From contig CM000434.1 of the NCBI GenBank assembly GCA_000165345.1, positions 160,001 through 224,000 on the forward strand: a stretch of 64,000 nucleotides of DNA. The letters run 5' to 3'. Positions 1 to 55,643 of the stretch are shown here, piece after piece (the stretch's first letter is position 1; each line of letters opens with the position of its first letter). The notes below the pieces were generated by a model, which did no database searches, had not been told where the DNA came from, and saw nothing but the letters and a program-made list of their open reading frames with translations. The translations under genes and the position numbers were made by a program.

Positions 1-750
1 GAACATTATTGGCAAGTTGAATTAGAATCACTTTATATTGGAGATACAAAATATTGTTGTGACTATGGATCTCTTGCTTATGAATGGGAAAATCTTGAAA
101 ATGAACATTTATATAAAAAATTTGGACATTACGAAGATCCTCCAATGGATGTTTATATTTACAAAACTTTCAATAAAAGTATTGATAAAACTAATAGAAC
201 TCCTGGATATGTTATTTTTGATTCCGGTACTTCTTTTTATACATTACCCAATTTTGAATATAATCATTTTATTAAAGAATATCAACCTTTTGGTGATTGT
301 TCTCAAATTCATTTAGATTCTAAAAAGATTGATCCAAAAATCATTCAACATTTTCCTAATATTACTTATACTTTTAAAGATGGATTTCAACTTGTTATTC
401 CACCTGAGCTTTATTTAACTCCAAATGAACAAGGAAAATGTAAACCTGGTATAATGATGATTGATGTACCAGGTGAATATGGACATTCATATTTACTTGG
501 TTCATTATTTATGAGATCTTATTATACTGTTTATGCAAAAAATATCCCCAAGATTGGTTCAGCTGTTGGTATTGCCAAAGCTAAACATAATAAAGATACC
601 AGAAAATATATTTATAGTAAACTTTCTTCGATTAATGAAACATTTGTACCTCCTGATGATGATGAAGCTGAATTATATTGGACTCAAATTAATGGAAGAT
701 TGTCAGAAAATTGGAAATTTCCTCCAATTTTAGGTAATTTATTCTTTTAA
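1..750 (+). CDS. Pepsin-like (A1 family) aspartic protease, 3' portion; the 5' end lies upstream of the window
   Basis: Frame 1 is open from position 1 (EHYWQVELESLYIGDTKYCCDYGS...) into the listed ORF. It carries the second catalytic D-S/T-G motif (VIFDSGTSF) and the C-terminal YLLGSLFMRSYYTVY segment typical of A1 proteases. Stop at 748-750. Confidence 0.7.
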   Translation, partial: EHYWQVELESLYIGDTKYCCDYGSLAYEWENLENEHLYKKFGHYEDPPMDVYIYKTFNKSIDKTNRTPGYVIFDSGTSFYTLPNFEYNHFIKEYQPFGDCSQIHLDSKKIDPKIIQHFPNITYTFKDGFQLVIPPELYLTPNEQGKCKPGIMMIDVPGEYGHSYLLGSLFMRSYYTVYAKNIPKIGSAVGIAKAKHNKDTRKYIYSKLSSINETFVPPDDDEAELYWTQINGRLSENWKFPPILGNLFF

Positions 751-856: not shown

Positions 857-3800
857 TTATTTTTTCTCTGATAATTCCTTATTCTCCTTCTTTTCTTGTT
901 GAATTGTATTAACTATATTAACATTTGAACTATTTATATTATAATCCTCCATTTCTAAACCATATTCTTCACTTTTAAGTATTAATTTATTCATTTTCTC
1001 TTTTTTATTATCTTTATAGACTTTAAATATTAATATTATGCCAAGTAATCCTATAATTGACCATATTACTGTTGTTATTAATATTAAAGTTACAATAATC
1101 CTTCCAAATGGGGAAGAATTAATAAATATATAAATTTTATCTGACATTATTCTATTCATTAATTTACTTATTGAACCTTGCCATACTTTTATTTCTCTTT
1201 CCTTGACTTTTCTCATTTCAATTTTATTAGGATTTACCATATCCCCAAAACTTGTCCCTATATAAGTTTTTCTATACCAATCTGAAGTATTGTTTTTTAA
1301 TTTTGTAATAAATTCATCTGCTTTTTTTAAATTCAAATGTAAATCTTCTATAGTATTTTCTTCATCTTTTAGTATTAGAATTCTATTTGTTGAATTATTT
1401 ATTTTCATTTCAGATTTAAAATGTGTGATTACTCTTATTACTCCTAAAGAATGATCCAAAACCATATCCACAATTTCAATTCCATTTTCATTTATTCCTA
1501 AGACTTGTATAATTGATTGTTTAAATGAATTAATAAAATTATCATAACCCATTGGCATAATTCTTTCATAAAATCCTGATAATTCGACTTTTAAAGCAAT
1601 ATCTCTTTTCTCTCCTTTTGGAATACATATATAACCATTACCATACCATCCAATAGGGCATGAACATATATATGATCCAATAGTATTAGTACATAATGAA
1701 TCTTCTCCACAATTATTTATTAACTCTCCATTATTTTTCTCATCACATTCATTAATATCAATACATCTTAAATCTTGATTTAATGATGAAATTCTATAAC
1801 CTTTTTTACATCCACAATAATGATTATAACTTTTATCATCTTCTAAATCATTTGAAATTAATGATAAAAGAGATTTTTCTTGATAATCATTAATACTTTT
1901 TCTTTTTTCATCAATAATATTTCCATAACTCTCAGAATTATTTTCTATATTAGTGTTTTGAATAATGCATTGTAATCCTTTTGGACAAAATAGACTTTTT
2001 TCTGATTGCTCTTCATCAATTCCTCTAGAAAAATCGATTTGAGTCTCTGGACCTATTACCAATTCTTGAAAAGATTTGTCAAAACAAACATTTTCCTGAA
2101 TACAACTCTTTTTTCCATCACCATAATATCCTGGTTTACAAACACAACTATAACTTCCCTCTTTATTTATACATAAAGCAAGAGGATGACATGGCCTCTT
2201 CAAACCTGAAGGAGTTACTATATGTCTTCTAATTGATGAAAACGGTGAATTTAAAATACTAGTAATCTCTCTTGTTCTTTCAATGGTTGGATATATTGCA
2301 TTATTTGTATTATAACCCATATAAATATCCCCTTGTCTTTGTTCTTTCTCCTCTATTTGAAATTGTCTATTATGTTCTTCACATTCATTAATATCCTCAC
2401 AACTATGTCTGAAAAATATATTTCCAGTTTTACTATCAATTAATCTAATAACTTGATGTTGAAATCCTTCATCACAAATACAATAATTATTTACTTTATT
2501 TATTAATTGATTTGGTTGATTATTACCATTTTCCTGACTATTATTTATATCAGAAAATATATTTCTCATAATATGTGAAGAACTATTCATATTTATAGTC
2601 ATTTTTGATTTTAAACATTTTGAATTTTTCCAACATATTCTTCCATCCATATTATCACATTCAACATGTATTGAATGACTTTCTAAAAAGTTTGGTACCA
2701 TTTTCTTTTTCTGTACTTTATTTTCATCAATCATTGTTTTATTCTTCATTCCTATATCTAATACTTTATCACAATCCTTACTATCATTAATACAAAATAT
2801 ATCACATATACCATCTTCTAACCAATCAGTATTACATTCTTTTCCAGTATAAATTTGATTAAATTCTTCATTTAAATGATAATCCTTTAATTTAGTTCCA
2901 AAATCCATATTTACACCTAATATAGATAACTCATCATATCCATTAGATGTTATTGAATATCTACCAATTAGAACTCTTTTATTTCCAATATTATCCAAGC
3001 TTTTACTAGATTGATATTTTCTTTCTCTTAATTCTATTTTATTATTCCATTCAAAAATCATTTCCTTTTGTACAAGGGTAATCAATTGAATTCTTCTAGA
3101 TTTTATTGAAATTTCATCATATTTTGGTAATATATTAATACCAATTAATGGATAACTTAAGCCATTTAAATAGCCTGAAAATTTTGAATATAAATCACAT
3201 ATTTGCTGATAAATTTCATCAAAGTATTTGTTTCTTCTTGTATCCACTTTTAAATAATATATAATAGGTACCAAATATCCTCCATCTTCTTTTTTCTTCT
3301 CTGTCATACCTTCAGATGTTGAAATTAATAATTTAGATCCATTAATAGTTTTATTAAATACTAGATATGCAATAATGGCTCCATTTTTATCATTTTCAAT
3401 TTCATATTTATTATTATAATATAAAAAATGACCAGTAAAGTGATTTTTTTCCATATCAGTTATTAAAGTTAAGTTAGAATGGATAATTTTCTCTTCTTTA
3501 TTATTATCATTATTCTTTGCTATTTGATATATTTCATATCCAATATGTTCATAAGTTGTTGTAATTATACCATTAGATTTAATTCTGGTAGGAAAAATTA
3601 ATAAAATTGGCACCATATTATTTATACTTTGATTTATTGGATACGTAATTAAAGTCTGAGATGATATTACTTGATTATCCATTCTTGAAGTGAATAAAAT
3701 TTGATTTGTAGAATTTTCTTTACAAGGAATTATATTTAGTAGAGTTGTATTCATTTTTATTATAGAATCTGAATAACTGGAATCAGAATTGAAATTAGAA

Positions 3801-5680
3801 TTAATTTCTTCAAAATGATGATTACCTTTATACTTCAACTCCAAATTACATAATTGACCTGGTTTATTAATCAATATGTCACTAATTATTTGAACCCATT
3901 TATAATTTGTTTGTTTAGTATATTTTTTTGCAAGTGATTTTGCTACTGCTTCATTTCTACATAATACTTGTTGATCAGGATCTGGATAATAGATGGATAC
4001 CCCTGTAAACCTTGATTCTAATATATTCGAATTTTTATTATAAACATTACTTAAAGCATACTTTTTATTCAAATCTCTATTATTAAATAATTCTCCTTGG
4101 CAATTACCATAAAGTTCACTATCAGGATCAGTACATTCTTGAATATTAACACTAGCAATCTGCATATTATAATATGAATCCAAAGTTAATGCCAATAATT
4201 CTTGAATAGAATTATCTAAAAAAAATTCTTGGGATAGATAACTTCTTAATAATTCAAGCATATCTCCCATATCATAACAACTGCATAAGTTCGAGATATC
4301 ACAATTTTCAATTTTCTTTGAATTTAAGATTGTTCTCTTTAATAAATCACTAATATTCTCTCCACCACATTTATATAATATTGTAAATAGATTATAAAGA
4401 TTAAATCTGAAAATTCTGTAAAACTCAGTATTTATAAGCGATAAAGTTAATGGATAACTTTGTGAATGAAGAGTATATCCATAAACAATTCTTGAAGCAT
4501 ACTCTAAAGGAGTTGCAATCCTATACTCTTGAACTTTATTAGGTCCAAAAATTTGAACTTCATCTTCAGCTGATCCTTTTTTAGTTACAGGATTTAAAGA
4601 TCTAAAATTCCAACCATGTCCTGGTTCATTATCTTCACTAGCTAATATATAATTTGCTAATGAATTCATAACTTCTAATACATCAAATTGCATCATTAAA
4701 CATGCATCAAAACCAAGTATATCAAATTTGAACTCAAATGAGAAATTTTCTCCTGTTTTTCCTCCAATTTTACTATTCATAATTCCTTCTTTAATTCCTC
4801 TATACATTTCACCTAGAAACATTCCATTTCCATCAGCATTGTCATGATCATCACCAAAACCAGACCATGCTGAACCATGATTCCAAAGAGTTAGTGCCGA
4901 ATATATTGAGGGAAATGAATCCAAACCTTTTGAAATAAAATTTGAAAGTATTTCAGGTGAATTTGAATCAACTTCTCCTAAATCTTCTAATATAATCCAT
5001 ACAAATTTCTTCCTAAATTGTACCCTTAATTCTTGAGTTAATCTCCATCTATATAGAATATAAGCTCCAGTAAAATTTTGTGAAATTTGTTCCTGTTTTA
5101 TCATAGGATTTGTTAATCCACTTTCTGGGCACGATATTATAGGAGCTGAAACATCTTTGTTTGTAAAATCTTTGCACCTGTCAATGTATACTACTAAGTG
5201 AAGATGATCTGCTGTTTGAGTTTGTAATGGACTTGTCATTTCTCCTAAGTCCACTAAAGACATTGATTCCAAGTTATTATCTGCATGAATAAATATTAAA
5301 TGCGTCCAATATCTTTTTTCATGAATTCTTTCCTTATTTATAGTTGAACAAACTTTACTATATTGAAATTCTAATTGATCATTTTTATTTTTAGGTGGTT
5401 CTTCTTCTTTTTTTATTGAACTCAAAACTACTTCTTCCTTTGAATTGTTATGAGACTTTTTTTCTGACCTAATATTATTTGTTTTATCCACATTATAATT
5501 ATCATTATGATTAACTTCCTCTATATCAGTAATAGTGCTATTCACTTTTGAGCTTTGCAAATTTTGATATTTGTCCACATTAACATAATTTTCTGGTAAA
5601 TACAGGAAACTTGAAATTGGTTGAATATCAAAAATAAACTTAATTGTAACCAAAAATACAAAAGTTATCTCTCTTTTCAT
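857..5680 (-). CDS. Large type I membrane protein: N-terminal signal peptide, clostripain-like C11 cysteine peptidase domain, multiple EGF/calcium-binding EGF repeats, single C-terminal TM helix and short cytoplasmic tail
   Basis: 1607-aa ORF with a verified ATG. The hydrophobic N-terminus is MKREITFVFLVTIKFIF. C11 hallmarks: WTHLIFIHADNNLE, HLHLVVYIDR, catalytic His context LWNHGSAWSGFG and catalytic Cys context ILGFDACLMMQFDV. EGF-like Cys patterns include CINKEGSYSCVCKPGYYGDG, DINECEEHN and DINECDEKNNGELINNCGEDSLCTNTIGSYICSCPIGWYGNGYIC. TM segment IIVTLILITTVIWSIIGLLGIILIF lies near the C-terminus. Confidence 0.65.
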   Translation of the reverse strand: MKREITFVFLVTIKFIFDIQPISSFLYLPENYVNVDKYQNLQSSKVNSTITDIEEVNHNDNYNVDKTNNIRSEKKSHNNSKEEVVLSSIKKEEEPPKNKNDQLEFQYSKVCSTINKERIHEKRYWTHLIFIHADNNLESMSLVDLGEMTSPLQTQTADHLHLVVYIDRCKDFTNKDVSAPIISCPESGLTNPMIKQEQISQNFTGAYILYRWRLTQELRVQFRKKFVWIILEDLGEVDSNSPEILSNFISKGLDSFPSIYSALTLWNHGSAWSGFGDDHDNADGNGMFLGEMYRGIKEGIMNSKIGGKTGENFSFEFKFDILGFDACLMMQFDVLEVMNSLANYILASEDNEPGHGWNFRSLNPVTKKGSAEDEVQIFGPNKVQEYRIATPLEYASRIVYGYTLHSQSYPLTLSLINTEFYRIFRFNLYNLFTILYKCGGENISDLLKRTILNSKKIENCDISNLCSCYDMGDMLELLRSYLSQEFFLDNSIQELLALTLDSYYNMQIASVNIQECTDPDSELYGNCQGELFNNRDLNKKYALSNVYNKNSNILESRFTGVSIYYPDPDQQVLCRNEAVAKSLAKKYTKQTNYKWVQIISDILINKPGQLCNLELKYKGNHHFEEINSNFNSDSSYSDSIIKMNTTLLNIIPCKENSTNQILFTSRMDNQVISSQTLITYPINQSINNMVPILLIFPTRIKSNGIITTTYEHIGYEIYQIAKNNDNNKEEKIIHSNLTLITDMEKNHFTGHFLYYNNKYEIENDKNGAIIAYLVFNKTINGSKLLISTSEGMTEKKKEDGGYLVPIIYYLKVDTRRNKYFDEIYQQICDLYSKFSGYLNGLSYPLIGINILPKYDEISIKSRRIQLITLVQKEMIFEWNNKIELRERKYQSSKSLDNIGNKRVLIGRYSITSNGYDELSILGVNMDFGTKLKDYHLNEEFNQIYTGKECNTDWLEDGICDIFCINDSKDCDKVLDIGMKNKTMIDENKVQKKKMVPNFLESHSIHVECDNMDGRICWKNSKCLKSKMTINMNSSSHIMRNIFSDINNSQENGNNQPNQLINKVNNYCICDEGFQHQVIRLIDSKTGNIFFRHSCEDINECEEHNRQFQIEEKEQRQGDIYMGYNTNNAIYPTIERTREITSILNSPFSSIRRHIVTPSGLKRPCHPLALCINKEGSYSCVCKPGYYGDGKKSCIQENVCFDKSFQELVIGPETQIDFSRGIDEEQSEKSLFCPKGLQCIIQNTNIENNSESYGNIIDEKRKSINDYQEKSLLSLISNDLEDDKSYNHYCGCKKGYRISSLNQDLRCIDINECDEKNNGELINNCGEDSLCTNTIGSYICSCPIGWYGNGYICIPKGEKRDIALKVELSGFYERIMPMGYDNFINSFKQSIIQVLGINENGIEIVDMVLDHSLGVIRVITHFKSEMKINNSTNRILILKDEENTIEDLHLNLKKADEFITKLKNNTSDWYRKTYIGTSFGDMVNPNKIEMRKVKEREIKVWQGSISKLMNRIMSDKIYIFINSSPFGRIIVTLILITTVIWSIIGLLGIILIFKVYKDNKKEKMNKLILKSEEYGLEMEDYNINSSNVNIVNTIQQEKKENKELSEKK

Positions 5681-6258: not shown

Positions 6259-9200
6259 ATGGATCCTGTGGGAGCAATGAAGTCAATGATGGGAATGGTT
6301 GGATCTAACCTAGTTAGTTCAGCAAAACATGCAACTAAGCAAATGGTGAGTAAGATCCGTCAGAAAGCTGATCCCAGATCATATAGTAGCTCAAAAAAGA
6401 AAAAAAATAAAGCTGATAATGGTCAGAATATAGAAGGTACAAATATAAGTGATGACGATGATTTGAATGATTCAATGCTTCCTAATAGAAGAGATCATGG
6501 CAAAGAAGCAAGGAATAGAGATATAAATGGAGAAAATCTGGAAGTTAACAGTAATTTAACTCATGAATCATCAGATGACGAGTCAATTTTGGATTTTAGA
6601 GATCGAGTTGTAACAGAACAAGAATTCAAGAGATTAGCAGAACTTCTTGGTAGAGATATAAAAATGACAAATAGAGGTAATTCTGAAATGGAGAAACAAA
6701 TATGGTTAACTCCAAGAAGATTTAGGACTACAATACGATCAGTGCAGATTGAAAATCTAACAAAAATTGAACAGAAGAATGTATTTTTAGAATTTTCATT
6801 TGGAGGAACACTTACAGAAGTTAGACTATTGAATAGTAATACCGGCCAAGAAGTTCCAAGATTGTTGGGATATCCAGCATGCAAAGAATTTTTTACACAT
6901 ACTGTTGATATTAAACCGTTTTATATTGAAAATAATGATGAGTTACTTATTGATATTCCTGATGAAAATGGTAAAGACTATGATATGGAGCTCAAAAATA
7001 ATAATTCGATTGAAATTTCATTAGATGAAACTTTTGAATGGAGAGGTAGTTATTTACATTTAGAAAGGGAATTATTTAGAATTATTGCTTGGAGAGCTAA
7101 TTCAGCAACTGTTAATGAGTTATTAGGATATAATGAAGATATATTAAAAAATTATGCAACGGGAAGTGTTAATCAAATGATTACTTTATCAAAAAGAACA
7201 CATAATAATATATCAAATCCTATTTTTAGAATTACATTACAAATTATATTTCAAGAAATTTATGATTTTCAACTAAGCCTATCTCAATTCACTTTAAGAA
7301 ATATTAGTAATGACAATGAGAATTCCTCTCCTTCAGAACGAAAACATTCTCAAAATATTTATAATGATCATGAAATTGAATATAATCATGACAAAAAAAG
7401 TAACAAAAAGCAAACTAGTCGTGATAATACAAATATAATTAACGATCAAAATACTGTAAAAATTGATTTGAGAGATGATCAAGAATTAAATTTTAATGAA
7501 AAAGGAAGGCTTATTTCTAATAATCATTCAACATCTTGTAGATTGAATATCAAGTTCCCATCTTTTGGAATAGATAATCCTTTACCAACTAAATGTACTT
7601 CAACTTGGTCAGAATGTTATGAGAAACAAAATAAAATTATTAGATGGGATAATATTGGTATGATTCCTTTTAGAGGTACAATACATGAATTGGAAAGAAA
7701 TAATTTACATGCAAATTTAGAAATTAATTCAACTGGCAAAACTCATAATATTTTTAAATCTACAAAACAAGTCCATTGTACTTTTAATCTTAAAAATATT
7801 GTCTATTATCCCTATATTCAGACTGAAATTAAGCTTCCTGATGGAGAATCTTGTATACTTGAAGGAAAAATAGAATTTGGAAATATACCCAAATATCATC
7901 AATTGGGTAATATTTTAGAAATTGATGATGAAAATAAATTATATCTTATAATCAAAATTATTCGAATTGATAATTTAATCTTGAACATTTATGAAGTCAA
8001 CAATATTCTTCAAGATACTGAAAATGATGATTCTATGGATGTTTATGTTCAGTTAAGCTTTGATGGTAATCGAAAAGAAACGCCTGTAGTTTCTGGTACA
8101 TTACATCCACTCTTTCAAACTGAACTTACATTTATATTGGATTATATTGATCATGAAAAAAAGCCTAACGAACTTGACGCTCATTCTTTAGCCAAACTTT
8201 TAGAAAGAAAAGGTCCGATTGTTATTGATGTGTGGAGAAAAAATAAATCATCAATGGCACAACATTTAGGATGGACTGAAATTCATTGGAAAGATATTCT
8301 AATAAAAACTAATCATTCAAATTATTCTGGAAATGAATTTTCTGATTTAAAATTAAATCAACAATTCTCACCTTTAAAATTTGACCCTACTAATAATTTA
8401 ATGGACAATGCTAGTAATGCATGCTTAGGCGCCAACATGCTTAGGCGCCAAGAATACCGAAAATTTTATGATCGCAATATAGGTAAAGAAGTTGTATATG
8501 AAACAAGAGTATATCAGGATGCGAGTATATTATATAATTTAGGTCAAAGGCCCAGTTCTTTAGGGTCTTATACAAATGAAACAATCTCGCCGAAAGTATA
8601 TTTGGAAATATGGACAAAGCCTGATATAAGTTGCATGTATAATATTGGTTCAACGTCAGCATTACTAGTAAGAGGTAATAATGAAGTTGTGGGAGAAGTT
8701 TCTAAATATTTTGTTGATCGATTAAATAGAATTGTTGAGTGGTCAGGCATTGGTCCATCATTAAAGAATTCAAGAATAAGATCAAATATTTTTTATTGGG
8801 AATATGTTACTAAATCATTTGAGACTTGGGGAAGACAATATTCATATTATAGTTTGGATTCAAGAGGTGTAAGGCACTTACTTCCATCATTCTTACAACC
8901 TTTAAAACCTCTTACTGGTGTTGATAATTCCTCAAAAGTACATCATTTTATTCATTCTTTTCCATATTTACCAACTACAAATAATGAAATATGGAGAACT
9001 CCTGATTTATTCTTATTATCAAGACAAGGTACTCCATTTGATCATACATTATTGCAGGTATGTTTATTATTGGGTTTAAATAGAATAGCTTTTTTGGCAT
9101 GCGGTACTTTATTGAATAGAGATCCATATTCATGGGCAGTAACTATACATTATGAGTATATTATGAGTGAAAATGATGATTTATTTAATTTAAGTAAGGA

Positions 9201-11256
9201 TGGAAATTTATTTAAAAAAGAATCTCATGGAATTGGAGGTAGAAGTAGGAGAGTTTCTACTCTTAATTTTGGAAGAAATAAAAAACATAGTAATATGAGG
9301 TCAATATCACCAGCATTAATGAAGACAACATCTGATAGGAAGAATTATAAATCAGAAAAAAGTCATATATTAGGATCTAATCGAAGTAAAATGAGGTCAT
9401 TATCTCCAATTTCTATTAATCTTGGTCAAAGGATGCATAGGAAGTCATCTATTATTAATGATAATGAACATCGATTTAGTTTAAGTAAATCAACTGAAGC
9501 AATTCATGATCATAATCATAATACATCATCAAAAAATAGTATTAGACAAAATTCTATAAGATTTTATGCATTATTTTGGGATACTGTAAAACATGTTGTT
9601 TATAGAGTTAATGATATTGTTCAAGAATCAAAACATGATGAATTTATTCAATGGATTAAAGAAGAAGGATATGATATTAATCAGTTAAATGAATTAGCAT
9701 TAGAATCATTATTTTCTCAAAGAAATTATCATCAAGATAAATATAGAAATATACAATATAAACCAAATTTCTGTTTAAAAGTTATTAATAAGTTACCATA
9801 TAGAACTTTGGATTTATTGGTTAATAATAAAAATATATATGCAAATATACAACAAGTTAATGATCCATTAAAATTATCATATAATTTAAATGATAGTAAG
9901 CTTTGGTATTCATTCTTTCCAAAAAAAACTGATCAATTTAATCATATTAAAATGAATAATCAAAGAATTCAAGGAGAAATTGAAGGTAAAGGAATATTAA
10001 ATCAATTACCAATAACACAAAATAGTTCAAATATATCAGCATGTTTTTCATGGCCAATAATTAATCTTGTAACTGATACTACTAGTAATAAACCTGGAAA
10101 GAATAATAAAGGAAGATCAGTTACTGGTGATTATCATATTCATAATAATAATAGTAATAATGATTATTTTGATCAAGATCAATTTGGAAGATCTAATAAT
10201 AAAGATAAGAATATTAATGGTATTATTGGTAATGATCATAAGAGTAAAGGTAAAGCAAATAACGGTTTAAAATCATCTACTGGAATGAGTTTTGGATTAA
10301 ATAGGTCAAAAGATGAACATTCAAGTATAGAGAAGAAGTTTTTAGAGAATAATGTGATTATGGATGCTGAACTAGATTTATATTGTAGAAGTATTAATGA
10401 TGAGATTATGAGATATGTACAGATTCAAAGATTTCAAAAATCACGTACAATAGGTACAAGATGGAATAGAGAAAACGAGAATATGATATTTTTAAGAATG
10501 GGATTAAAGTTATTAGGTAAATGGGAGATGTCAGATCCATATACTCGTGATTATTATAAAAATAAGACTGAATTTTTGAAATGGAGAGAATCATTTTTAT
10601 CAACAGTACCAACAAAATATAGGATGAAATATGCAATATTGACTTTTCCATGTAATGTTCCAAAATGGATAGCACAACAAGTTTGGTTTAAATGTAGCTT
10701 TTTATCAAATGAGACTGATAAAAGATCAATATTTTCTTTATCAGTAGATATTAATAGTTGGCCAAATAATATTCAATCAATAAGGATATTAATATTGGTA
10801 GTACATCCTTTGAAATCTAATCAGCTTAGAAAGCTTCAATTATTACAAAAGATGAGTATATCAAATTCAGTTAGTAACAATAATATCAATAACAACAATA
10901 ATAATAACAATAATAGTAACAATATTCATCAAACAATGAAGATTAATATAAAAGGTCCTTCCAGGAATGAAAGAGAAAATATTTCTGATTCAATTAAAGA
11001 AGATAATAATAAAGGTAATGATAAAGTAACAAAGCAAGGTTTGGATAAATTAGAAATTCCAGAATTCTCAAATGAATTATTGATAAAGGAGAGTGATAAA
11101 AAGAGCGTGGATGAGGATAAGGATGAGAAAAAGAAGGAAGATAAAGAGGAAAAGAAGAAAAAGGATAACAATAGCGAAAAAGAGAGAAGAAGAGCATCTT
11201 CAATTATATTCTCAGACGAAGAAGATGAGCCTGAGCTTAAACTGTTACATCCATAA
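6259..11256 (+). CDS. Large hypothetical protein (1665 aa) with a C2-like beta-sandwich segment, an Asn-rich insert and a Lys/Glu/Asp-rich C-terminus
   Basis: Long ORF with a verified ATG. The C2-like stretch is DVYVQLSFDGNRKETPVVSGTLHPLFQTELTF. The low-complexity region is NNNINNNNNNNNNSNN and the tail is KDEKKKEDKEEKKKKD. No confident family assignment. Confidence 0.55.
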   Translation: MDPVGAMKSMMGMVGSNLVSSAKHATKQMVSKIRQKADPRSYSSSKKKKNKADNGQNIEGTNISDDDDLNDSMLPNRRDHGKEARNRDINGENLEVNSNLTHESSDDESILDFRDRVVTEQEFKRLAELLGRDIKMTNRGNSEMEKQIWLTPRRFRTTIRSVQIENLTKIEQKNVFLEFSFGGTLTEVRLLNSNTGQEVPRLLGYPACKEFFTHTVDIKPFYIENNDELLIDIPDENGKDYDMELKNNNSIEISLDETFEWRGSYLHLERELFRIIAWRANSATVNELLGYNEDILKNYATGSVNQMITLSKRTHNNISNPIFRITLQIIFQEIYDFQLSLSQFTLRNISNDNENSSPSERKHSQNIYNDHEIEYNHDKKSNKKQTSRDNTNIINDQNTVKIDLRDDQELNFNEKGRLISNNHSTSCRLNIKFPSFGIDNPLPTKCTSTWSECYEKQNKIIRWDNIGMIPFRGTIHELERNNLHANLEINSTGKTHNIFKSTKQVHCTFNLKNIVYYPYIQTEIKLPDGESCILEGKIEFGNIPKYHQLGNILEIDDENKLYLIIKIIRIDNLILNIYEVNNILQDTENDDSMDVYVQLSFDGNRKETPVVSGTLHPLFQTELTFILDYIDHEKKPNELDAHSLAKLLERKGPIVIDVWRKNKSSMAQHLGWTEIHWKDILIKTNHSNYSGNEFSDLKLNQQFSPLKFDPTNNLMDNASNACLGANMLRRQEYRKFYDRNIGKEVVYETRVYQDASILYNLGQRPSSLGSYTNETISPKVYLEIWTKPDISCMYNIGSTSALLVRGNNEVVGEVSKYFVDRLNRIVEWSGIGPSLKNSRIRSNIFYWEYVTKSFETWGRQYSYYSLDSRGVRHLLPSFLQPLKPLTGVDNSSKVHHFIHSFPYLPTTNNEIWRTPDLFLLSRQGTPFDHTLLQVCLLLGLNRIAFLACGTLLNRDPYSWAVTIHYEYIMSENDDLFNLSKDGNLFKKESHGIGGRSRRVSTLNFGRNKKHSNMRSISPALMKTTSDRKNYKSEKSHILGSNRSKMRSLSPISINLGQRMHRKSSIINDNEHRFSLSKSTEAIHDHNHNTSSKNSIRQNSIRFYALFWDTVKHVVYRVNDIVQESKHDEFIQWIKEEGYDINQLNELALESLFSQRNYHQDKYRNIQYKPNFCLKVINKLPYRTLDLLVNNKNIYANIQQVNDPLKLSYNLNDSKLWYSFFPKKTDQFNHIKMNNQRIQGEIEGKGILNQLPITQNSSNISACFSWPIINLVTDTTSNKPGKNNKGRSVTGDYHIHNNNSNNDYFDQDQFGRSNNKDKNINGIIGNDHKSKGKANNGLKSSTGMSFGLNRSKDEHSSIEKKFLENNVIMDAELDLYCRSINDEIMRYVQIQRFQKSRTIGTRWNRENENMIFLRMGLKLLGKWEMSDPYTRDYYKNKTEFLKWRESFLSTVPTKYRMKYAILTFPCNVPKWIAQQVWFKCSFLSNETDKRSIFSLSVDINSWPNNIQSIRILILVVHPLKSNQLRKLQLLQKMSISNSVSNNNINNNNNNNNNSNNIHQTMKINIKGPSRNERENISDSIKEDNNKGNDKVTKQGLDKLEIPEFSNELLIKESDKKSVDEDKDEKKKEDKEEKKKKDNNSEKERRRASSIIFSDEEDEPELKLLHP

Positions 11257-11466: not shown

Positions 11467-12525
11467 TTAGAAATCTGCATTCAAATCAAACTTTTGGTCA
11501 TCTTGATTGACCATAACTCCAGCCATTTGATATTCACCAACTCTCTTTTCGAAGAAGTTAGTTTTACCTTGAAGTGAAATAAGGTCCATCCAATCAAAAG
11601 GATTAGAAACGTTGTAGATTTTTGGAATATCCAAGGCAAAAAGTAATCTATCAGCAACAAATTCAATATATTGGGCCATAAGTCTCGAATTCATACCAAT
11701 AAGATCAACAGGAAGAGAGTCACAAAGAAAGTTTCTTTCAACTTCAACAGCTTCTGATATGATTTGTTGTACTCTAGGAGCTGGTAATTTAAATTTAAGG
11801 GCTTTATATATTAAACAAGCAAAATCAGCATGGAGACCTTCATCACGACTAATAAGTTCATTAGAAAATGTGAGTCCAGGCATAAGTCCACGTTTTTTAA
11901 GCCAAAAAATTGCACAAAAGCTACCAGAAAATAGAATTCCTTCAACAGCACAGAATCCAATAATTCTTTCAGCAAAAGATCGCTCAGAATTCATCCATTT
12001 AGTTGCCCATTCTGCTTTCTTTTTTACAGCTTCAATATGAGAAATTGCTTCAAAGAGCATTTGACGTTCTTTAATTTCAGTAATATATCTATCAATAAGT
12101 AATGAATAAGTTTCACTATGTATTTGTTCAATAGACATTTGAAAAGCATAATACATTCTAGCTTCCGGTATTTGTATTTCTCTAAGGAAATTTACTGCTA
12201 AGTTTTCCATAACAATACCATCACTTGCAGCAAAGAATGCTAAAACATATTTGATAAAATGTCTTTCAGGGTCTTTAAGACTTTCCCAATCTCTAGTATC
12301 TTGACTTAGATCAATTTCTTCAGTAACCCAAAACGACGCTTCAGCTTTTTTATACATTGACCAAATATCTTTAATTAATTCTTTCAATTCATTTCTATTT
12401 TCTCGGCTGTATTTAAGCATTGGTTCATTAACTTGATTTATTTTTACTTCATTCACAAGTTTTTCAATATTTTCTTCATCTTTTGTTTCCTTTGTTAAAA
12501 TTACATTATTATTTTCCTCTGTCAT
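11467..12525 (-). CDS. RNR2: Ribonucleotide reductase small subunit R2 (class Ia, di-iron/tyrosyl radical)
   Basis: Canonical R2 motifs are present: [23 protein letters not shown] (Asp ligand), [10 protein letters not shown] (Glu/His ligands plus radical Tyr), [11 protein letters not shown] and [10 protein letters not shown]. The C-terminal R1-binding tail ends FDLNADF. ATG verified. Confidence 0.9.
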
Positions 12526-13419: not shown

Positions 13420-14439
13420 ATGAATGAATCAAAGAAAGAATTATTAGAACAGCAAAAAAATGAATCAATCTTATTAGATAATCCTTTTAGATGGGTTTTA
13501 TTTCCAATAAAATATAGTAGATTATGGAGTTTGTATAAAAAATATGAGGTATCATTTTGGACAGCAGAAGTAATATCACCAATGGAAGATAAGACAAAAT
13601 TAATGAATATGGACGAAAAATTACTTGATTATATTGAAATGGCCTTTGCAAAACGTATTTATATTGATAATACATGCTTAGATACTGTATTGTTAACATG
13701 TGAATTATTAGGACAAGTACAAGTACCAGAAGCAAGAGGTTACTTTTCATTTACAATGTGTATGGAGAATATATATAAGGAATTATTTATGAATTATGTT
13801 GAAATGATACGTAAAAATAAGGAAAAGATTGAAAGGACAGATGAAGTGGAAAAGAAGGATGAGAATAATTTAAATAGTAAAATATCTAAAGAAGAATATG
13901 AATATAATTTAGAGAAGAAATTGAATGAATTAGAAGATTTTACAAAAATGAAGGAATTAGTTGGTAATTTTTACGATGAAGATACTTTATTTAGTGAAAA
14001 ACTTATCTATTATGTAATAATTAAAAAGATATTCTCATCTAGTATTCATTTACTTAGATTATCTTTTTCAATGAGAAATATATCAGAATCTGAATTACCT
14101 ACTCAACTTTGTGATGGTTTAGATAGAATACGTAGAGATGAACAATATCAAGTTGAGTTTTGTTTAAGTATTGCAAAATCTATGAAAACTAAACCAAGTA
14201 ATGATCAAGTAGTTAATTTATTAGAGCAAGCTATTATGTTAGAGAAGAACTTTATATTTTCAATTGTAGATCCACAAGTTCTTCAAATTGAAAGAGAAGA
14301 TATTGTTGCTTTTCTTTTATTTAATGCTGATGAAATACTTGTAGATTTAAAGTATCCAAGACAATTCAATGTTTCTAATCCATTCATAAATATTATGAAC
14401 GATTTTCCGTGCTCCTTCTCAAGAAGAAGCTGTTGCTAG
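13420..14439 (+). CDS. Divergent R2-like protein lacking several di-iron ligands and the radical tyrosine (catalytically inactive R2 paralogue, Rnr4/R4-like); 3' end uncertain
   Basis: Aligns with R2 throughout (NPFRWVLFPIKYSRLWSLYKKYEVSFWTAEV, QVPEARGYFSF, FNVSNPF). The ENIHSEMY equivalent is ENIYKELF (His to Tyr, radical Tyr to Phe), and the helix that carries a Glu ligand in R2 lacks it. The listed ORF ends ...FPCSFSRRSCC. The +1 frame continues to 14530 ending ...SQDF, just before an N gap. Confidence 0.65.
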   Translation: MNESKKELLEQQKNESILLDNPFRWVLFPIKYSRLWSLYKKYEVSFWTAEVISPMEDKTKLMNMDEKLLDYIEMAFAKRIYIDNTCLDTVLLTCELLGQVQVPEARGYFSFTMCMENIYKELFMNYVEMIRKNKEKIERTDEVEKKDENNLNSKISKEEYEYNLEKKLNELEDFTKMKELVGNFYDEDTLFSEKLIYYVIIKKIFSSSIHLLRLSFSMRNISESELPTQLCDGLDRIRRDEQYQVEFCLSIAKSMKTKPSNDQVVNLLEQAIMLEKNFIFSIVDPQVLQIEREDIVAFLLFNADEILVDLKYPRQFNVSNPFINIMNDFPCSFSRRSCC

Positions 14440-17689: not shown

Positions 17690-20600
17690 ATGTCAAAATA
17701 CACATTCACTGAATATAGAAGATTGAATAATTCTATATTCAGATTGGATGTATTTCCATTCATTACTATTTATATTGTTTTAATTTCAATCTTATTAGGA
17801 GAAATCTTCAGTTTAAGTAAAACAATCACTTATAAAGATGTTTTTGATTCATTCATTTATTTAATAAATTTCATACAAAATCTTAATAATTTAAATAATA
17901 CCATAAATTCGGTACCAGTACAAAATAATGAAATATTTAATGATTTAATATCAAATAATACAAATTATTTAAATGCTTCTGAATTGGATGATTCAAATTT
18001 AAGTGAAGAATTACAACTTATTATTGATAATGTTCCAATTAAATATATTGTTGCAATTTTTATCACAATTTTAATAAATTTATTAACTTTTCTTATGACT
18101 CAATGGAATTTGAAATTTAAAAGTATTATTTGTTTTAGTAAAATAAAAAAAAAATCAAATGGAACTTGTACAAGTTTAAATAATAAAACCACTACACATA
18201 TTATGGTAAATAGTTCCAAATATCCAAGTGAACTTTGTCCTTTAAAATATTCAACATGTATTGAACATGTTGGAAAACTTAAAGATTTTTATTCTTTAAC
18301 AAAAATTAAATCATGTTCAATTATTAATATGAACAAATCTTTTATTATACAAGTTGATGCAATTGATTATTATAAATATAAATCAGAAATTGAGAAAATT
18401 CTTTTAAAAAATATTAATAAAAGTGATAATTCCAATTTATTACCAAATTCTTCAAATATTAATTGGATAAAATTGATTAATTATGAAAAGAAAACTTTTA
18501 TATATAATAAATCAAAAGAAACTTTTATTAAAGCAAATTATCCAATAAATCTTCCAATAAAATCATATTTTGATCAATTAATACATAAAGGTGGTTTAAA
18601 TATGAATGAAATTATACTTCATAATAATTTATATGGAATTAATAATTATGAAATACCAAAAGAAAAATTTCTGGATTTATTTATTGAACAAATTATATCA
18701 CCTTTTTTCTTATTTCAAATATTTTGTGTATTACTATGGATACTTGATGAATATTGGCAAATGAGTTTATTTACTTTATTTATGTTATGTACTTAAGAGG
18801 CTCAAATGGTATTTAGAAGACTTAAAGAATCTGATGAAGTTAGAAATATGAGAAGACCATCATGTTTTATTCTTGTATATAGAGAATATACTTGGAAATA
18901 TATTAATACTGATCATTTATTACCTGGTGATATTATTGCAATTTCATCCACAATTTCTTCCAATTCTTTAAAAAATAAGAATTTTGATGAAAATAATAAT
19001 AATAATAATCAAGATGAAGAAGCAGTTTCTATTGCTCCTTGTGATTTTGTATTATTATCTGGAAGTATTACTGTAAATGAAGCAATGCTTACTGGTGAAT
19101 GTACTCCAAAAATGAAAGTATCAATGAATAATGACGAAGATGAAAATGAACAAGATAATAAATTGAATGAAAAGACTTTTGATATTGATGGATTTAAAAA
19201 TCATGTAATATTTGCAGGTACCAATATTATACTTACAAGATCTTCAATTGTTACAGAAAATAAAGAGTTCCAATCTATTATTAAAAAGATTTCAAATGAA
19301 TACCATAATTGTTATAATGTTGATAATATGAACTCTATTAAGAATCCAATGAACTTTAATGAAAAGTATAATAATAATGTCACTTCTTCTTACATTAAAT
19401 ATGATAATGATAAAATGATTTGTATTGGATATGTTCTTAGAACTGGATTTAATACTTATCAAGGAAAATTAATCCGTACAATTTCATCATCAGCTGAAAA
19501 GATCTCATCTAACAGTCTTGAATCACTAATTTTCTTAATGATGTTAATTTTTTGCTCATTAATAGCATCTTCTTATGTACTTTATTATGGAATTAATGAT
19601 CCTTCCAGAAATAAATTCAAATTAATTATCTCCTGCATTCACATTATAACTTCAGTTATTCCTCCAGAATTCCCCATCACACTTTCTGTTGCTGTAACTA
19701 TGGCAGTTGTTCAATTAACCAAAAAAAAGATTTATTGTACTGAACCATTTAGAATTCCATTTGCTGGTAAACTTAGAATATGTGCTTTTGATAAAACTGG
19801 TACTTTAACTAGTGATAAAATGATACCACATGGATTATTTGGAATTAACTTGTATAATAATGATGATACTTCTTGTATTACTTTTGATGATAATGATAAG
19901 TATAGTAATAACAATGAAGATAAGGATGAGATGAACAATAAAAAGTTAGCATCAGTATCGGGATCAAGGCAAGTGTTGGGATCAGAACCAATATCCAATT
20001 CTTCTGTTGATATACCATATTTATCTGATCTTATTATGGGATGTTGTAATGGACTTTCACTTAATGGAAAGACCTTGGTTGGAGATCCTATGGAAAAATC
20101 CATCAAAAAGAAATCATCCTGGAGAATTCATCACTCATCTGAAAATAATTATCATAACATTAAAGATAATTCAACATTTTCAATAGTTAGAAGATATCCT
20201 TTTTCACCAGAAGAACAAAGAATGACCAATATTGGAATTTTGCATATTCCTTCAGAAAAACAAAATTCATCATCAAGTAAATCTCAAACTTCTTCATCTT
20301 CATCTCAATCTCTATCTCCGTCTCATTCTGTAAAATTTCATAAAAGTCTTTCAAAACCTGATCCAAAAACTTATGGTCTTGTCATTTCTAAAGGAAGTCC
20401 AGAAATGATGCTTCAATTCTTTAAAAAAGATCCAGAATTTGATCAAAATTTATACAAAAATGTTGTACATGAATGTACTAAAAAAGGGTATCGTATATTA
20501 GCACTTGGTTCAAAATATTCTTGTATTAATGAAGTTAATAATCATCATTTAAAAAGAGAATTCTTTGAAAATGATTTAATATTTTGTGGTTTTCTTGCAT

Positions 20601-22072
20601 TATATTGTCCAATTAAAAAACATTCCAAATCTGTTATTCAAGAACTTAATCAAAGTAATCATCAATGTATTATGATTACTGGTGACAATATTCTTACAGC
20701 TTTCCATGTTGCAAAAAATGTATCAATTACCAATAATTGTAAAGATATACTCATTTTATCAAAATCTGATAATGAAAACTCTAATCATATTAATTATATA
20801 TGGAAATATTCAAATGGTAATATTTTTAATAAATTTGATAATAATTTAACTCATTTAATTCATATTAATAATGAATTTAATATTGGTATTACTGGTAATG
20901 TATTCCAATCTTTTATTGAAGACTTCAAAGAAACCAAAATACTTGAACAATTTCTTTTATTTACAAAAATATATGCAAGAATGTCTCCAAAAAATAAACA
21001 AACTCTTATTAATCTTTATAATAATATGGGTAATATGACTTTAATGTGTGGAGATGGTACCAATGATGTTGGTGCTTTAAAACATTCTCATGTTGGTATT
21101 TCTCTTCTTTCAAATGAATCATCATCAGATTCTAATAATAAAGATAATAATAATTCTCCATTTAATATTAAAAAAAATCAAAAATCCAACTTTTTTGAAA
21201 TTAAAAAAGATATTGAAGCCAGAATTAGACGTGGTGAAAAGCTTACAAAAGCTCAAATTCAACAAGAAATCTTGAAAGAATTCCAAAATATGGATGAAAT
21301 ACCAAAAGTAAAACTTGGAGATGCTTCTATTGCTTCACCTTTTACATATAAAGGTGAATCTCCCAATTGTATTATTAAACTTGTTAGATATGGAAGATCA
21401 ACTTTAACCACAGTATTATTAATGTATAAATTAATGGGATTAAATAGTATTGTATCTGCATTTTCTATGAGTGTATTAGCTCATGATGGAGTTAAATTTG
21501 GTGATTTTCAAACTACTGTAGAATCCATTATTATGAGTGGCTTATTCTTTCTTGTACTTAAAAACAAGCCAGCTAAAAAGCTTGTTCCACAAAAACCACC
21601 AAATAGTATTTTCAGTCCTATGATATTTTTATCATTTATTATTCAAGCATTAATTCATTTATTTGTTATTTATTTTGGATGGAAAATTTCATATTCTTTA
21701 ATGCCATTAAACTATTCAACAAATATTGATGGACCTTTTGAACCAAATATTATTAATACAACAATGTATTATTTATATACAGCTTGTCACTTAGCTTGTT
21801 TTCTTTCAAATGCACAAGGTCATCCATTTACTACTCCATTATCTGAAAATAAATATCTTATTTACACTTCAGCTTTAGTTATTTCATTCTTAATTACTTC
21901 AATTCTAGGAATATTTCCACATTTAAATATATTATTTTCATTGGTAACTTTACAAAGTAAATATTATCAATCAATTCTAATACTTCTTGTATTATTTGAT
22001 ATTTTTGGTACTCTATTAATTAATCAATTATTTAATCAACTTCATATTTACTTTGACAAATGCAAACATTAA
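17690..22072 (+). CDS. P5A-type cation-transporting ATPase (Spf1/ATP13A1-like); one reading frame interrupted by an in-frame TAA at 18794-18796
   Basis: The two listed ORFs 17690-18796 and 18806-22072 are in the same frame, and the M2 helix region continues across the stop (...FTLFMLCT*EAQMVFRRLKESDEVRNM). P-type motifs ICAFDKTGTLT, ITGDNILTAF and GDGTNDVGALK are present, plus the P5 M4 motif SVIPPEFPITLS. The low-complexity insert NENNNNNNQDEE is in the A-domain region. Confidence 0.75.
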
Positions 22073-38785: not shown

Positions 38786-39670
38786 TCAATTACGTGATCT
38801 ACCTAACAACAATATAAATAGTATTACTAGTAATCCAACAGCCAGTCCAGAAGATGTACCTAAAATGATATTAAACTTGTTATCAGATGAAATTGTACAG
38901 TTTCTACCATAAAATCCTTCTGCACATTTACAATAATATCCATCGTTGCCTATATTAAAACATTCACCACTATTCTGGCATATTGGTTCTAACTGAGTAT
39001 CACAAATTCCCTCGCATCCTGAACATTCCACAACCTGTCTTAACTGATTAGATGACGGACATGCAGTACCTCCATTCATTGCCTCCCTCACAACTACTCT
39101 ATATCTTGATTTGGTTCCCTCGCATAAAAACTTTGAGCAACCAGTCCAAGGAGACCAAAAAGAGAGAACACAATCGACTGGGCATGGAGAAGAATTACAT
39201 GAAGATGTTTCTTTAAGCAAAGAATCACAACCAGGAGCAGAGTGGGTCAATTCTCTTGTCCTGATTGTAAGCCCTCCGTCACAAGAAGCTGAGCAAGGAG
39301 ACCAACTTCCCCAATCAGTGAATCCACATGGCAAACACTCCACATCCGAATTACAAGCAGAAATCTGGGAAGTTATAGTACATTCTAATCCTCCTGCCAT
39401 AACCTCATTTAATGGATATCTCCATCTATAAGTTGTTCCACCATTGCAAGTACTTGTACAAGGAAGCCAAGATGACCATTGAGAATACTCACAATCCAAT
39501 GTAGATATTGCAAATCTTGTAGTTGAATACACTCCTGCTTCATTTGGATAAATTAATCCTACTGATTCTGGTTTATATGAGTGCACTCCACAATGAAATA
39601 TGGTTCCCAATGACCATAATGACTCTCTTACAAAAACGTCAACTCCGAACTTTTTGTTAATCAATATCGA
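38786..39670 (-). CDS. TSP1-EGF adhesin gene A, exon 2: 3 thrombospondin type 1 repeats, 1 EGF domain, a TM helix and a short tail
   Basis: TSP1 motifs: YSQWSSWLPCTSTCNGGTTYRWR, FTDWGSWSPCSASCDGGLTIRTR and SFWSPWTGCSKFLCEGTKSRYR. EGF: CDTQLEPICQNSGECFNIGNDGYYCKCAEGFYGRNC. TM: LAVGLLVILFILLLG. The listed ORF starts on a TTG codon with no upstream ATG before a stop, consistent with being a downstream exon. Confidence 0.6.
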   Translation of the reverse strand, partial: SILINKKFGVDVFVRESLWSLGTIFHCGVHSYKPESVGLIYPNEAGVYSTTRFAISTLDCEYSQWSSWLPCTSTCNGGTTYRWRYPLNEVMAGGLECTITSQISACNSDVECLPCGFTDWGSWSPCSASCDGGLTIRTRELTHSAPGCDSLLKETSSCNSSPCPVDCVLSFWSPWTGCSKFLCEGTKSRYRVVVREAMNGGTACPSSNQLRQVVECSGCEGICDTQLEPICQNSGECFNIGNDGYYCKCAEGFYGRNCTISSDNKFNIILGTSSGLAVGLLVILFILLLGRSRN

Positions 39671-41687: not shown

Positions 41688-42930
41688 TTTTGGATTTGCA
41701 ATAGAACAAGATACTGATATTCAATTAATAGATGATGATATTTGGCCTTTAAATCAAGTCTTCTCTGCCGGTGGTAGTATTTCTGACAATGGATTCCAAA
41801 TATTGTTTGCAACCGCAAAAAAAAATTCTTATGAATTGATCATTTCAGTTTATCCATTGCTCACTACAGTAGTAAGAGAATGTACTTATGAAGGAAAAGT
41901 TGTAAGAAGGCTTAAATCCGTAGTAGAACATTCCCCAAGATTTGAAAAATGGCCATTCTTTGATAAGTGGGTTATTAGCTTTCAAAGACAAGAATATGGA
42001 ATTTCAATTTCTTTTAACCAAGGTTATACTGAATCTTTATTTTGGAAAAGATGTCTAAATGAACCAATAGTCAGCGTTAAGGTAGAATCAAAAGATGCCT
42101 ATCTTTCAGCTGACCAAGTTGATTGTATCGTATCAGAATGGAGTTCTTGGTCCCAATGTAGTTCAAGTTGTCAGATAGGTACTAGATCAAGAACTAGATT
42201 AATATTAAGACCAGCTTCTTTTGAAGGTACCACATGTCCAAACTTGATAGAAAATGAAGGATGTAACACTAGCATATCTTGTGAAGATTGTGCCTATTCT
42301 TCTTGGTCTCCTTGGAGTGAGTGTAGTGTTACTTGCCAAGGTGGATTTCGTTCTCGAACTAGAAAGCTGATTTGGAAATCTGACATTAAAGGGAGATGTG
42401 AAGATAATGAATCAGATATAGAATCTTGTAATGAACAAAGTTGTCCAGTAAATTGTAGACTCTCAAGCTGGACTTCATGGAGTATATGCTCTTCTACTTG
42501 TGGTCCAGGTAATAAGATGAGATATAGAATTATTTTAGCTCAATCAGATCTTGGTGGAGTACAGTGTCCGACAGAAAAGGAAATTACTGAGCGTGCTTCA
42601 TGTCAACTTCAAGAATGCGAAAAATCTTGTTCAACTGGAGAAATTTGCAAAAATGGTGGGACTTGTATTGATATCCCTAATAGCGGTTTTTCTTGTGAAT
42701 GTGCTGAAGATTATTTTGGTAAATTTTGTGAACACAAGAAATATAGCTGGTGGGTTTATTTTGTTTTTTGCATTGCTACACAAATTATTATTGGAGCAAT
42801 TGTAAAGAGTACATTCCTTTCAAGACCTGCACCAATTACTGAAACGCCAGTTACTTACAACCAAGAATATGCTTTCAATGATTATCCGACAGCATTTGAT
42901 CAAAATACTGACATTTCTGGTGTTTTTTAA
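41688..42930 (+). CDS. TSP1-EGF adhesin gene B, exon 2: N-terminal domain, 3 TSP1 repeats, 1 EGF, a TM helix and an aromatic-rich cytoplasmic tail
   Basis: TSP1 motifs: SEWSSWSQCSSSCQIGTRSRTR, SSWSPWSECSVTCQGGFRSRTR and SSWTSWSICSSTCGPGNKMRYR. EGF: CSTGEICKNGGTCIDIPNSGFSCECAEDYFGKFC. TM: WWVYFVFCIATQIIIGAIV. The tail is ...YNQEYAFNDYPTAFDQNTDISGVF. Confidence 0.7.

Positions 42931-46577: not shown

Positions 46578-55643
<9,066 letters not shown>

Follow-up and report, generated by a model that had tools for sequence, protein, structure and literature searches.

The cgd6_670 locus

Within a 64,000-nucleotide window (contig CM000434.1 of GCA_000165345.1, forward-strand positions 160,001 to 224,000), we analysed the gene cgd6_670, which encodes a peptidase of the clostripain-like C11 family joined to EGF-like modules. 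The window is AT-rich (22-33% GC) and dense with long intron-free open reading frames (ORFs). The minus-strand ORF at 857..5680 begins at the first ATG past an in-frame stop, with in-frame stops upstream, and yields a protein of 1607 residues, as proposed in a first-pass annotation of this DNA. An exact-sequence look-up reveals that the product is C. parvum EAK89763.1, also deposited as QOY40944.1, WKS78174.1 and WRK32663.1 (UniProt Q5CXK9; MEROPS MER037012). We therefore find that the window is C. parvum chromosome 6 and that the ORF is the known single-copy gene cgd6_670. The neighbouring genes cgd6_660 (pepsin-like aspartyl protease) and cgd6_680 (C2-domain protein) are consistent with this locus.

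Structural and sequence analysis supports a type I membrane glycoprotein whose ectodomain combines a C11 peptidase, a beta-rich region, a degenerate LNR, four EGF-like modules (two of them calcium-binding) and a SEA-like domain; we place the probability of this whole account at about 0.8. The central reading of the first-pass annotation, a C11 ectodomain followed by EGF and calcium-binding EGF (cbEGF) modules on a type I membrane protein, is thereby borne out by the hidden Markov model match, the dyad alignment, the fold and the orthologues described below.

We note that the gene, its C11 assignment and its EGF/Notch/transmembrane architecture are already public and are not a new discovery. 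The depositors' description of EAK89763.1 gives a signal peptide, a domain of clostripain-like caspase/hemoglobinase type, and a Notch domain plus two EGF domains, an architecture carried in the annotation since the 2004 genome. The protein also has its MEROPS entry, and MER037012 forms part of the C11 phylogeny in the PNT1 paper (PMC4850289). The first-pass annotation had treated a membrane-bound, EGF-bearing C11 protein as unusual, and the novelty that this implied does not stand. The present analysis adds a count of four six-Cys EGF modules (as against the 2 EGF domains in the description of the public entry, which has the same sequence), a SEA-like domain, a conserved Cryptosporidium-specific insert in the second EGF module, a lineage-restricted middle region and a non-conserved tail. 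The features are collected in the table below.

Features of cgd6_670 in the window (aa, residues of the encoded protein; AF2, AlphaFold2; CDS, coding sequence)
Feature	Position	Strand	Basis
Complete CDS of cgd6_670	857..5680	-	ORF list; 1607 aa + stop at 857-859; exact sequence on record as EAK89763.1 / QOY40944.1
Probable signal peptide, aa 1-24 (MKREITFVFLVTIKFIFDIQPISS)	5609..5680	-	Basic n-region and 13-aa hydrophobic core, read from sequence; depositors' call
Poorly conserved N-terminal region, aa 25-119	5324..5608	-	Mean identity 0.34 to 7 orthologues for aa 1-119 vs 0.81 in the C11 core
Peptidase C11 catalytic core, aa 120-420	4421..5323	-	
His268, predicted catalytic histidine (LWNHGSAW)	4877..4879	-	Alignment to solved C11 enzymes; invariant in 18 homologues
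Asp325-Ala326-Cys327 (GFDACLM), predicted S1 aspartate and catalytic cysteine	4700..4708	-	Alignment to solved C11 enzymes; invariant in 18 homologues
C-terminal, mostly helical, Cys-containing part after the C11 core, aa 421-620	3821..4420	-	Conserved Cys438/460/466/468/574/611; low AF2 confidence
Beta-rich region without family assignment, aa 621-945	2846..3820	-	AF2 model mainly beta strands
Degenerate LNR (Notch-type) module, aa 946-975, C-x9-C-x3-C-x6-C and conserved Asp	2756..2845	-	Homology to coccidian segment
EGF-like module 1, aa 1006-1095, with low-complexity insert	2396..2665	-	Cys 1008, 1016, 1022, 1067, 1069, 1094
cbEGF module 2, aa 1096-1194 (DINEC; Asx-hydroxylation consensus CINKEGSYSCVC)	2099..2395	-	EGF_CA/EGF_3 best stretch 1162-1193
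63-aa insert between Cys1 and Cys2 of cbEGF2, aa 1101-1163	2192..2380	-	In 10/10 Cryptosporidium sequences; absent from coccidian P0011, P0012, P0014
EGF-like module 3, aa 1195-1307, with variable inserts	1760..2098	-	Cys 1199, 1232, 1238, 1289, 1291, 1306
Canonical cbEGF module 4, aa 1308-1353 (DINEC; CTNTIGSYICSC)	1622..1759	-	Motifs; PDB sequence matches
Predicted juxtamembrane domain, beta-alpha-beta-beta-alpha-beta (ferredoxin-like, SEA-like), aa 1359-1494	1199..1606	-	
Single transmembrane helix, aa 1528-1550	1031..1099	-	Hydropathy; same span in PMC13095730 Table 2
Cytoplasmic tail, aa 1551-1607, 57 aa, Lys/Glu/Asn-rich	860..1030	-	Sequence; mean identity 0.20

The C11 domain

The Pfam model Peptidase_C11 (PF03415) matches residues 130-416 with 89.2 bits (E = 5e-25; gathering score 25.8 bits), spanning profile positions 2-219 of 359, and the family is also detected in all orthologues. 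Both Pfam families that the first-pass annotation had expected, Peptidase_C11 and EGF_CA, thus score above cutoff, and every C11 motif it had quoted can be located: HADNNLE at residue 132, VVYIDR at 163, LWNHGSAWSGF at 265 and GFDACLM at 323.

The bacterial C11 structures used for comparison are PmC11 (3uws/4yec), B. thetaiotaomicron 6n9j and iotapain 6nag, the P. distasonis zymogen 6mzo and clostripain 9cip. In phmmer alignments to the PDB sequences, LWNHGSAW pairs with LWSHGTAW of PmC11, FWSHGDGW of 6n9j and NHGG of clostripain, and GFDACLM pairs with FDACYM (PmC11/6n9j) and FDACLM (clostripain). We therefore assign the catalytic dyad to His268 and Cys327 and the S1 aspartate to Asp325. His268 and Cys327 also line up with the dyad of 6mzo, and their order, histidine before cysteine, is that of the characterised enzymes; the dyad read from motifs in the first pass is accordingly recovered by sequence alignment to solved C11 enzymes. 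The Asp-x-Cys arrangement is described as a potential S1 site, with an equivalent aspartate in PNT1, PmC11 and clostripain (PMC4850289).

Residues His268, Cys327 and Asp325 are invariant in 18 homologues from Cryptosporidium, Eimeria, Cyclospora and Cystoisospora, and the motifs LWNHGSAWxGFGDD, LGFDACLM and ASE[DE]NEPGHGWN are invariant or nearly so across the same 18 sequences. Within the genus, mean identity to 7 orthologues reaches 0.81 in the C11 core, the highest value in the protein, compared with 0.34 in the N terminus, 0.50 in the middle region and 0.20 in the tail; the strongest purifying selection falls on the protease core. A fold search with the AF2 model returns C11 structures as its top matches, in line with the caspase-like alpha/beta fold anticipated earlier. 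We conclude that cgd6_670 is a bona fide C11 member with an intact His268/Cys327 dyad, an Asp325 S1 residue and a caspase-like fold. Taken together, the alignment, the residue conservation and the constraint on the core argue for a domain that is catalytically competent and Arg/Lys-directed.

Could the C11 domain instead be a non-catalytic pseudo-protease, in a protein with a purely structural or adhesive function in the oocyst or on the gamete surface? Adhesion is the sole function of many apicomplexan proteins that are extracellular and multidomain, and the Pfam match covers only part of the profile. We nevertheless regard this as improbable because the catalytic histidine and cysteine and the S1 aspartate, residues that are usually lost in pseudoenzymes, are retained without exception across Cryptosporidium and coccidia. 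Furthermore, the flanking motifs are nearly identical over that distance, in what is the best-conserved part of the protein.

The bacterial enzymes share only 10-18% identity with cgd6_670 and are soluble secreted proteins of 350-530 residues that lack EGF, LNR, SEA-like or transmembrane parts. PmC11 and clostripain are activated through cleavage in the linker between the catalytic histidine and cysteine. In cgd6_670 this linker contains the basic residues R294, K297, K304 and K308, with an S-K motif aligned in most homologues. However, the linker of the bacterial enzymes differs in length and sequence, and their activation site is therefore not transferable to cgd6_670. The experimentally characterised PNT1 of Trypanosoma brucei is likewise a C11 protein with a His/Cys dyad and an aspartate two residues before the cysteine, as in cgd6_670 (PMC4850289). 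It is, in contrast, small, kinetoplast-localised and part of a divergent kinetoplastid clade, and it is not described in that paper with a secretory or membrane architecture.

N terminus and middle region

The N-terminal hydrophobic stretch ITFVFLVTIKFIF is compatible with a signal peptide, which both the depositors and the first-pass annotation call, and a hydrophobic N terminus is found in all orthologues. Residues 25-119 are possibly a propeptide or linker.

Downstream of the core, residues 421-620 probably complete the C11 unit, because the Pfam match ends at profile position 219 of 359. The region that follows (residues 621-945) is predicted, at moderate confidence, to be beta-rich, and has a block-mean predicted local distance difference test score (pLDDT) mostly between 55 and 85 at residues ~660-810, and lower elsewhere. 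It has no match in Pfam or among PDB sequences and no significant PDB fold match, and a phmmer search of 1.84 billion representatives matched only two clusters, both of Cryptosporidium orthologues; for these reasons it appears to be restricted to the Cryptosporidium lineage. An unassigned region of ~600 residues between the C11 and EGF parts had been proposed. Such a region is present, but it measures ~525 residues (421-945), of which the first ~200 probably belong to C11.

Residues 946-975 form a module of the pattern CxxxWLEDGICDIFCxNDxxDC, in which Cys949/959/963/970, W953 and D956/960/966/969 are invariant in the orthologue alignment. The LNR profile PF00066 gives no match to the cgd6_670 protein at E <= 1, and we reject a true LNR by profile and use the name LNR-like only. 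The aligned segment of the coccidian homologues does pass PF00066 (25.5 and 23.2 bits, gathering score 21.2), and because of this we read the module as homologous to LNRs by descent but degenerate. It has four cysteines rather than the six of PF00066, where three disulfides surround Asp/Asn Ca2+ ligands, as do the coccidian versions, and is 5 residues shorter in Cryptosporidium than in coccidia, with the conserved aspartates kept. The family profile also matches the LNR region of GlcNAc-1-phosphotransferase.

EGF-like modules and membrane anchor

Between residues 1008 and 1352 lie 24 cysteines, which resolve into four six-Cys EGF-like modules (1006-1095, 1096-1194, 1195-1307 and 1308-1353), three of them with long inserts. 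The count of 24 cysteines after residue 1000 (4 x 6) rejects the five or more modules proposed in the first pass; the two DINEC calcium-binding signatures proposed with them are found at residues 1096 and 1308. Pfam scores are 45.1 bits for EGF_3 (cutoff 28.5), 35.5 for EGF_CA (cutoff 27) and 25.5 for EGF, also above its cutoff. We took a cbEGF to require [DN]-x-[DN]-[EQ]-C together with the Asx-hydroxylation consensus C-x-[DN]-x4-[FY]-x-C-x-C. Both motifs occur only in module 2 (residues 1096 and 1170) and module 4 (residues 1308 and 1330), and modules 1 and 3 are predicted to be EGF-like without calcium binding. Among PDB sequences, module 4 matches the cbEGFs of ADGRE5, uromodulin and NELL.

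The insert of module 1 varies in length among species. The 63-residue insert of cbEGF2 has a mean identity of 0.76 (C. parvum to C. andersoni), as against 0.35-0.43 in EGF1 and EGF3. Absent from the coccidian homologues, it is a genus-specific loop under constraint.

The juxtamembrane domain adopts, in a low-confidence model, a fold whose match to SEA is no better than that to Cas6, RRM and other unrelated ferredoxin-like proteins. The SEA family is absent from the Pfam output for cgd6_670, and no G-S-V-V-V (G/S-V-V-V) autoproteolysis motif is found, the beta2-beta3 turn reading LGVIRV and varying among species. A true SEA domain by profile is rejected, and we use SEA-like only. The metazoan SEA and SEA-like proteins (mucins, TMPRSS, EpCAM/Trop2, dystroglycan) place a beta-alpha-beta-beta-alpha-beta domain directly before a single transmembrane helix, an arrangement that the model suggests for cgd6_670 as well; cgd6_670 differs from metazoan SEA in lacking a sequence-level match and a conserved autoproteolysis motif. 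With the Notch toolkit, cgd6_670 shares EGF modules and an LNR-type Ca2+-binding module, but its order is LNR-EGF-SEA-like rather than the EGF-LNR-HD of Notch.

The top 15 Kyte-Doolittle windows of 19 residues all fall within residues 1524-1556, so that the single transmembrane helix of the first-pass annotation is confirmed. Its cytoplasmic tail of ~70 residues shortens to 57. The tail is short or missing in the deposited orthologues of C. canis, C. felis, C. bovis and C. ryanae.

Orthologues and phyletic range

Orthologues of 1466-1680 residues, covering 88-100% of the query, are present in nine other Cryptosporidium species or genotypes, with one C11 match per Cryptosporidium species in the search. 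Several independent assemblies of C. parvum and C. hominis contain the same full-length protein on contigs >1 Mb, and the order C11...LNR...EGF is kept in three coccidian homologues (Eimeria flavescens P0014, P0011 and P0012). The first-pass annotation had named a chimeric assembly of two genes, as a possible refutation only; we found nothing in favour of an assembly or annotation chimera that would join a protease gene to an EGF-protein gene. The frame is uninterrupted, and because the architecture is conserved in 10 or more Cryptosporidium species and the order recurs in coccidia, the gene is not chimeric; with the independent assemblies added, we consider the chimera excluded for practical purposes.

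cgd6_670 is the orthologue of Toxoplasma CBDP3 (TGME49_269930), its closest ToxoDB match (E = 2e-62; PMC13095730). CBDP3 and the coccidian homologues of Eimeria, Cyclospora and Cystoisospora have active-site motifs nearly identical to those of cgd6_670. The coccidian proteins are larger: 650-1100 residues precede their C11 domain, and HADNNLE is followed by an insert. Their LNR is full-length, their cbEGF2 is canonical and lacks the 63-residue insert, and their middle region is too diverged from that of cgd6_670 for phmmer detection.

The C11 proteins of coccidia, chromerids and chlorophytes form a clade that groups with bacterial and archaeal C11, and the same study reports no C11 in Plasmodium or Babesia (PMC4850289). 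Among the lineages examined here, the cgd6_670 family is confined to oocyst-forming apicomplexans (Cryptosporidium and coccidia). Plasmodium and Babesia do not form environmentally resistant oocysts. The presence of the family in the oocyst-forming groups and its absence from Plasmodium and Babesia fit an oocyst-linked role.

Expression and localisation

Available data sets connect cgd6_670 with the female stage and the oocyst. Its transcript is labelled 'Female specific', with a log2 fold change of +3.97 in female versus asexual stages (Tandel dataset; S3 table, PMC11078545). It is strongly lowered when macrogamont differentiation is blocked, falling by log2 -1.8 to -4.9 with 8/10 tabulated compounds (PMC11078545). 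The protein has been quantified by tandem mass tag mass spectrometry in excysted oocyst material. PMC13095730 reports its detection by mass spectrometry in the insoluble excysted fraction. The hyperLOPIT assignment is 'Oocyst wall' (Guerin 2023, as quoted in PMC13095730). We found no record of TGME49_269930 in the Toxoplasma hyperLOPIT supplement and no mention of C11 or clostripain in the E. tenella gametocyte transcriptome paper. In the accessible part of the PMC11078545 supplementary files, cgd6_660 and cgd6_680 are not found, and co-regulation with cgd6_670 is unsupported.

An alternative reading places the protein at invasion, in the micronemes or on the surface of sporozoites and merozoites, with the EGF stalk as an adhesin, the C11 domain processing parasite or host surface proteins at attachment and the ectodomain shed by a rhomboid protease that cuts the transmembrane helix. 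A type I single-pass protein with adhesive-type EGF modules would suit such a role; cgd6_670 is included in an in-silico list of microneme protein candidates and has been put forward as a putative rhomboid substrate (PMC13095730). An affinity-purified antibody to peptide 266-278 also stains sporozoites. That staining, however, was scored as 'cytosol with granulated signals; non-microneme', the rhomboid cleavage has only been proposed in silico, the transcript is female specific and drops strongly when macrogamont differentiation is blocked, and hyperLOPIT reportedly groups the protein with oocyst-wall proteins and not with micronemes. Nor does the tail fit: it is not conserved, is missing from four species and has no acidic stretch with subterminal Trp of the kind typical of the tails of TRAP-family motor-coupled adhesins. 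A role in host-cell invasion is less likely, and this alternative as a whole seems unlikely to us. The first-pass suggestion of a surface or secretory-organelle processing protease, taken for invasive stages, is likewise not favoured, given the non-micronemal staining, the female-specific transcript and the reported oocyst-wall cluster.

Proposed role

We propose instead that cgd6_670 may be a membrane-tethered protease of the secretory pathway, produced by macrogamonts and carried into the oocyst, in which the C11 domain would act as an Arg/Lys-specific endopeptidase, carried by a rigid EGF stalk that Ca2+ stabilises. The protein is probably synthesised as a zymogen, as other C11 enzymes are, and a cut in the His-Cys linker, with R294, K297, K304 and K308 as candidate sites, could activate it. 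The active enzyme might then carry out limited proteolysis of macrogamont or zygote secretory cargo such as oocyst-wall precursors or, alternatively, at excystation, of proteins on the oocyst or sporozoite surface. Such processing, whether of wall or surface precursors or at excystation, is the most likely mechanism that we infer, held at somewhat less than even odds. A narrower form, in which cgd6_670 and its coccidian orthologues are membrane-tethered Arg/Lys-specific maturases of oocyst-wall or zygote-surface precursors whose activity or shedding is gated by the LNR/cbEGF/SEA-like toolkit and the 63-residue cbEGF2 loop, is speculative and, in our view, rather doubtful.

Several observations weigh against this picture. 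The AF2 models are of low confidence overall (mean pLDDT 52 and 57). In the literature searched we found neither biochemical data on cgd6_670 (activity, autoprocessing) nor enzymatic, genetic or tagged-localisation data for its protein. An activation cleavage homologous to that of the bacterial enzymes would follow by analogy, and its site and the substrates are conjectural. The 'Oocyst wall' assignment is second-hand, through PMC13095730; bulk cgd6_670 mRNA is reported as low, and the role of CBDP3 was called 'elusive' after a deletion study (PMC13095730, the latter quoting Wang 2023). The antibody staining is in sporozoites, and the supplement to the 2022 oocyst-wall proteome of C. parvum has no record of cgd6_670 or Q5CXK9.

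The gene is of interest for its intact and constrained catalytic residues, its standing as the sole C11 match per species, its female-gamete specificity and the absence of its family from Plasmodium and Babesia. Were the enzyme active and required for excystation or for oocysts to form, it could plausibly serve as a drug target for blocking transmission, since Arg-directed inhibitors and probes are well developed for C11 enzymes. If the maturase proposal is true, cgd6_670 would be a transmission-stage protease target. The four EGF modules, the SEA-like domain, the cbEGF2 insert and the non-conserved tail define constructs and mutants.

Other genes in the window

The 3' part of the pepsin-like aspartyl protease gene cgd6_660 (145-750, plus strand; PF00026 positions 200-313) lies next to cgd6_670, its 5' end falling outside the window. 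The two genes are convergent, with 106 bp between their stop codons, and thus place two predicted secreted proteases tail to tail. On the other side, divergent from cgd6_670 across a 578-bp intergenic region, 6259-11256 (plus strand) encodes a 1665-residue protein with a C2 domain and a CEP76 peptidase-like domain (PF24656, PF00168). At 32331-35303 (minus strand), ~27 kb from cgd6_670, lies the gene for a 990-residue rhomboid-domain protein (PF01694, 89.6 bits); its closeness to a gene for an in-silico rhomboid substrate is probably coincidental.

Two divergently oriented genes for ribonucleotide reductase small subunits occupy 11467-12525 (minus strand) and 13420-14439 (plus strand), ~900 bp apart. 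Against PF00268, one is canonical (340.7 bits) and the other far more diverged (131.8 bits), which suggests a specialised or degenerate paralogue. At 17690-22072 (plus strand), the frame of a P5-type cation ATPase is broken by a single in-frame TAA at 18794-18796 (...LFMLCT*EAQMVFRRLKE...). The ORF at 17690..18796 carries the P5A-ATPase transmembrane hairpin and Cation_ATPase_N, and that at 18806..22072, in the same frame, carries E1-E2_ATPase and Hydrolase; the TAA may reflect a tiny intron, an error of sequencing or a nonsense allele.

Proteins with TSP1 repeats and EGF domains, of the thrombospondin-related adhesin type, are encoded at 38786-39664 (minus strand) and 41803-42930 (plus strand), with a 381-residue ORF of no assignment between them. 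Both are listed from TTG starts, and their true N termini therefore probably lie elsewhere. Finally, 46578-55643 (minus strand) is an ORF of 3021 residues, in which only a PH domain is recognised, near the N terminus.

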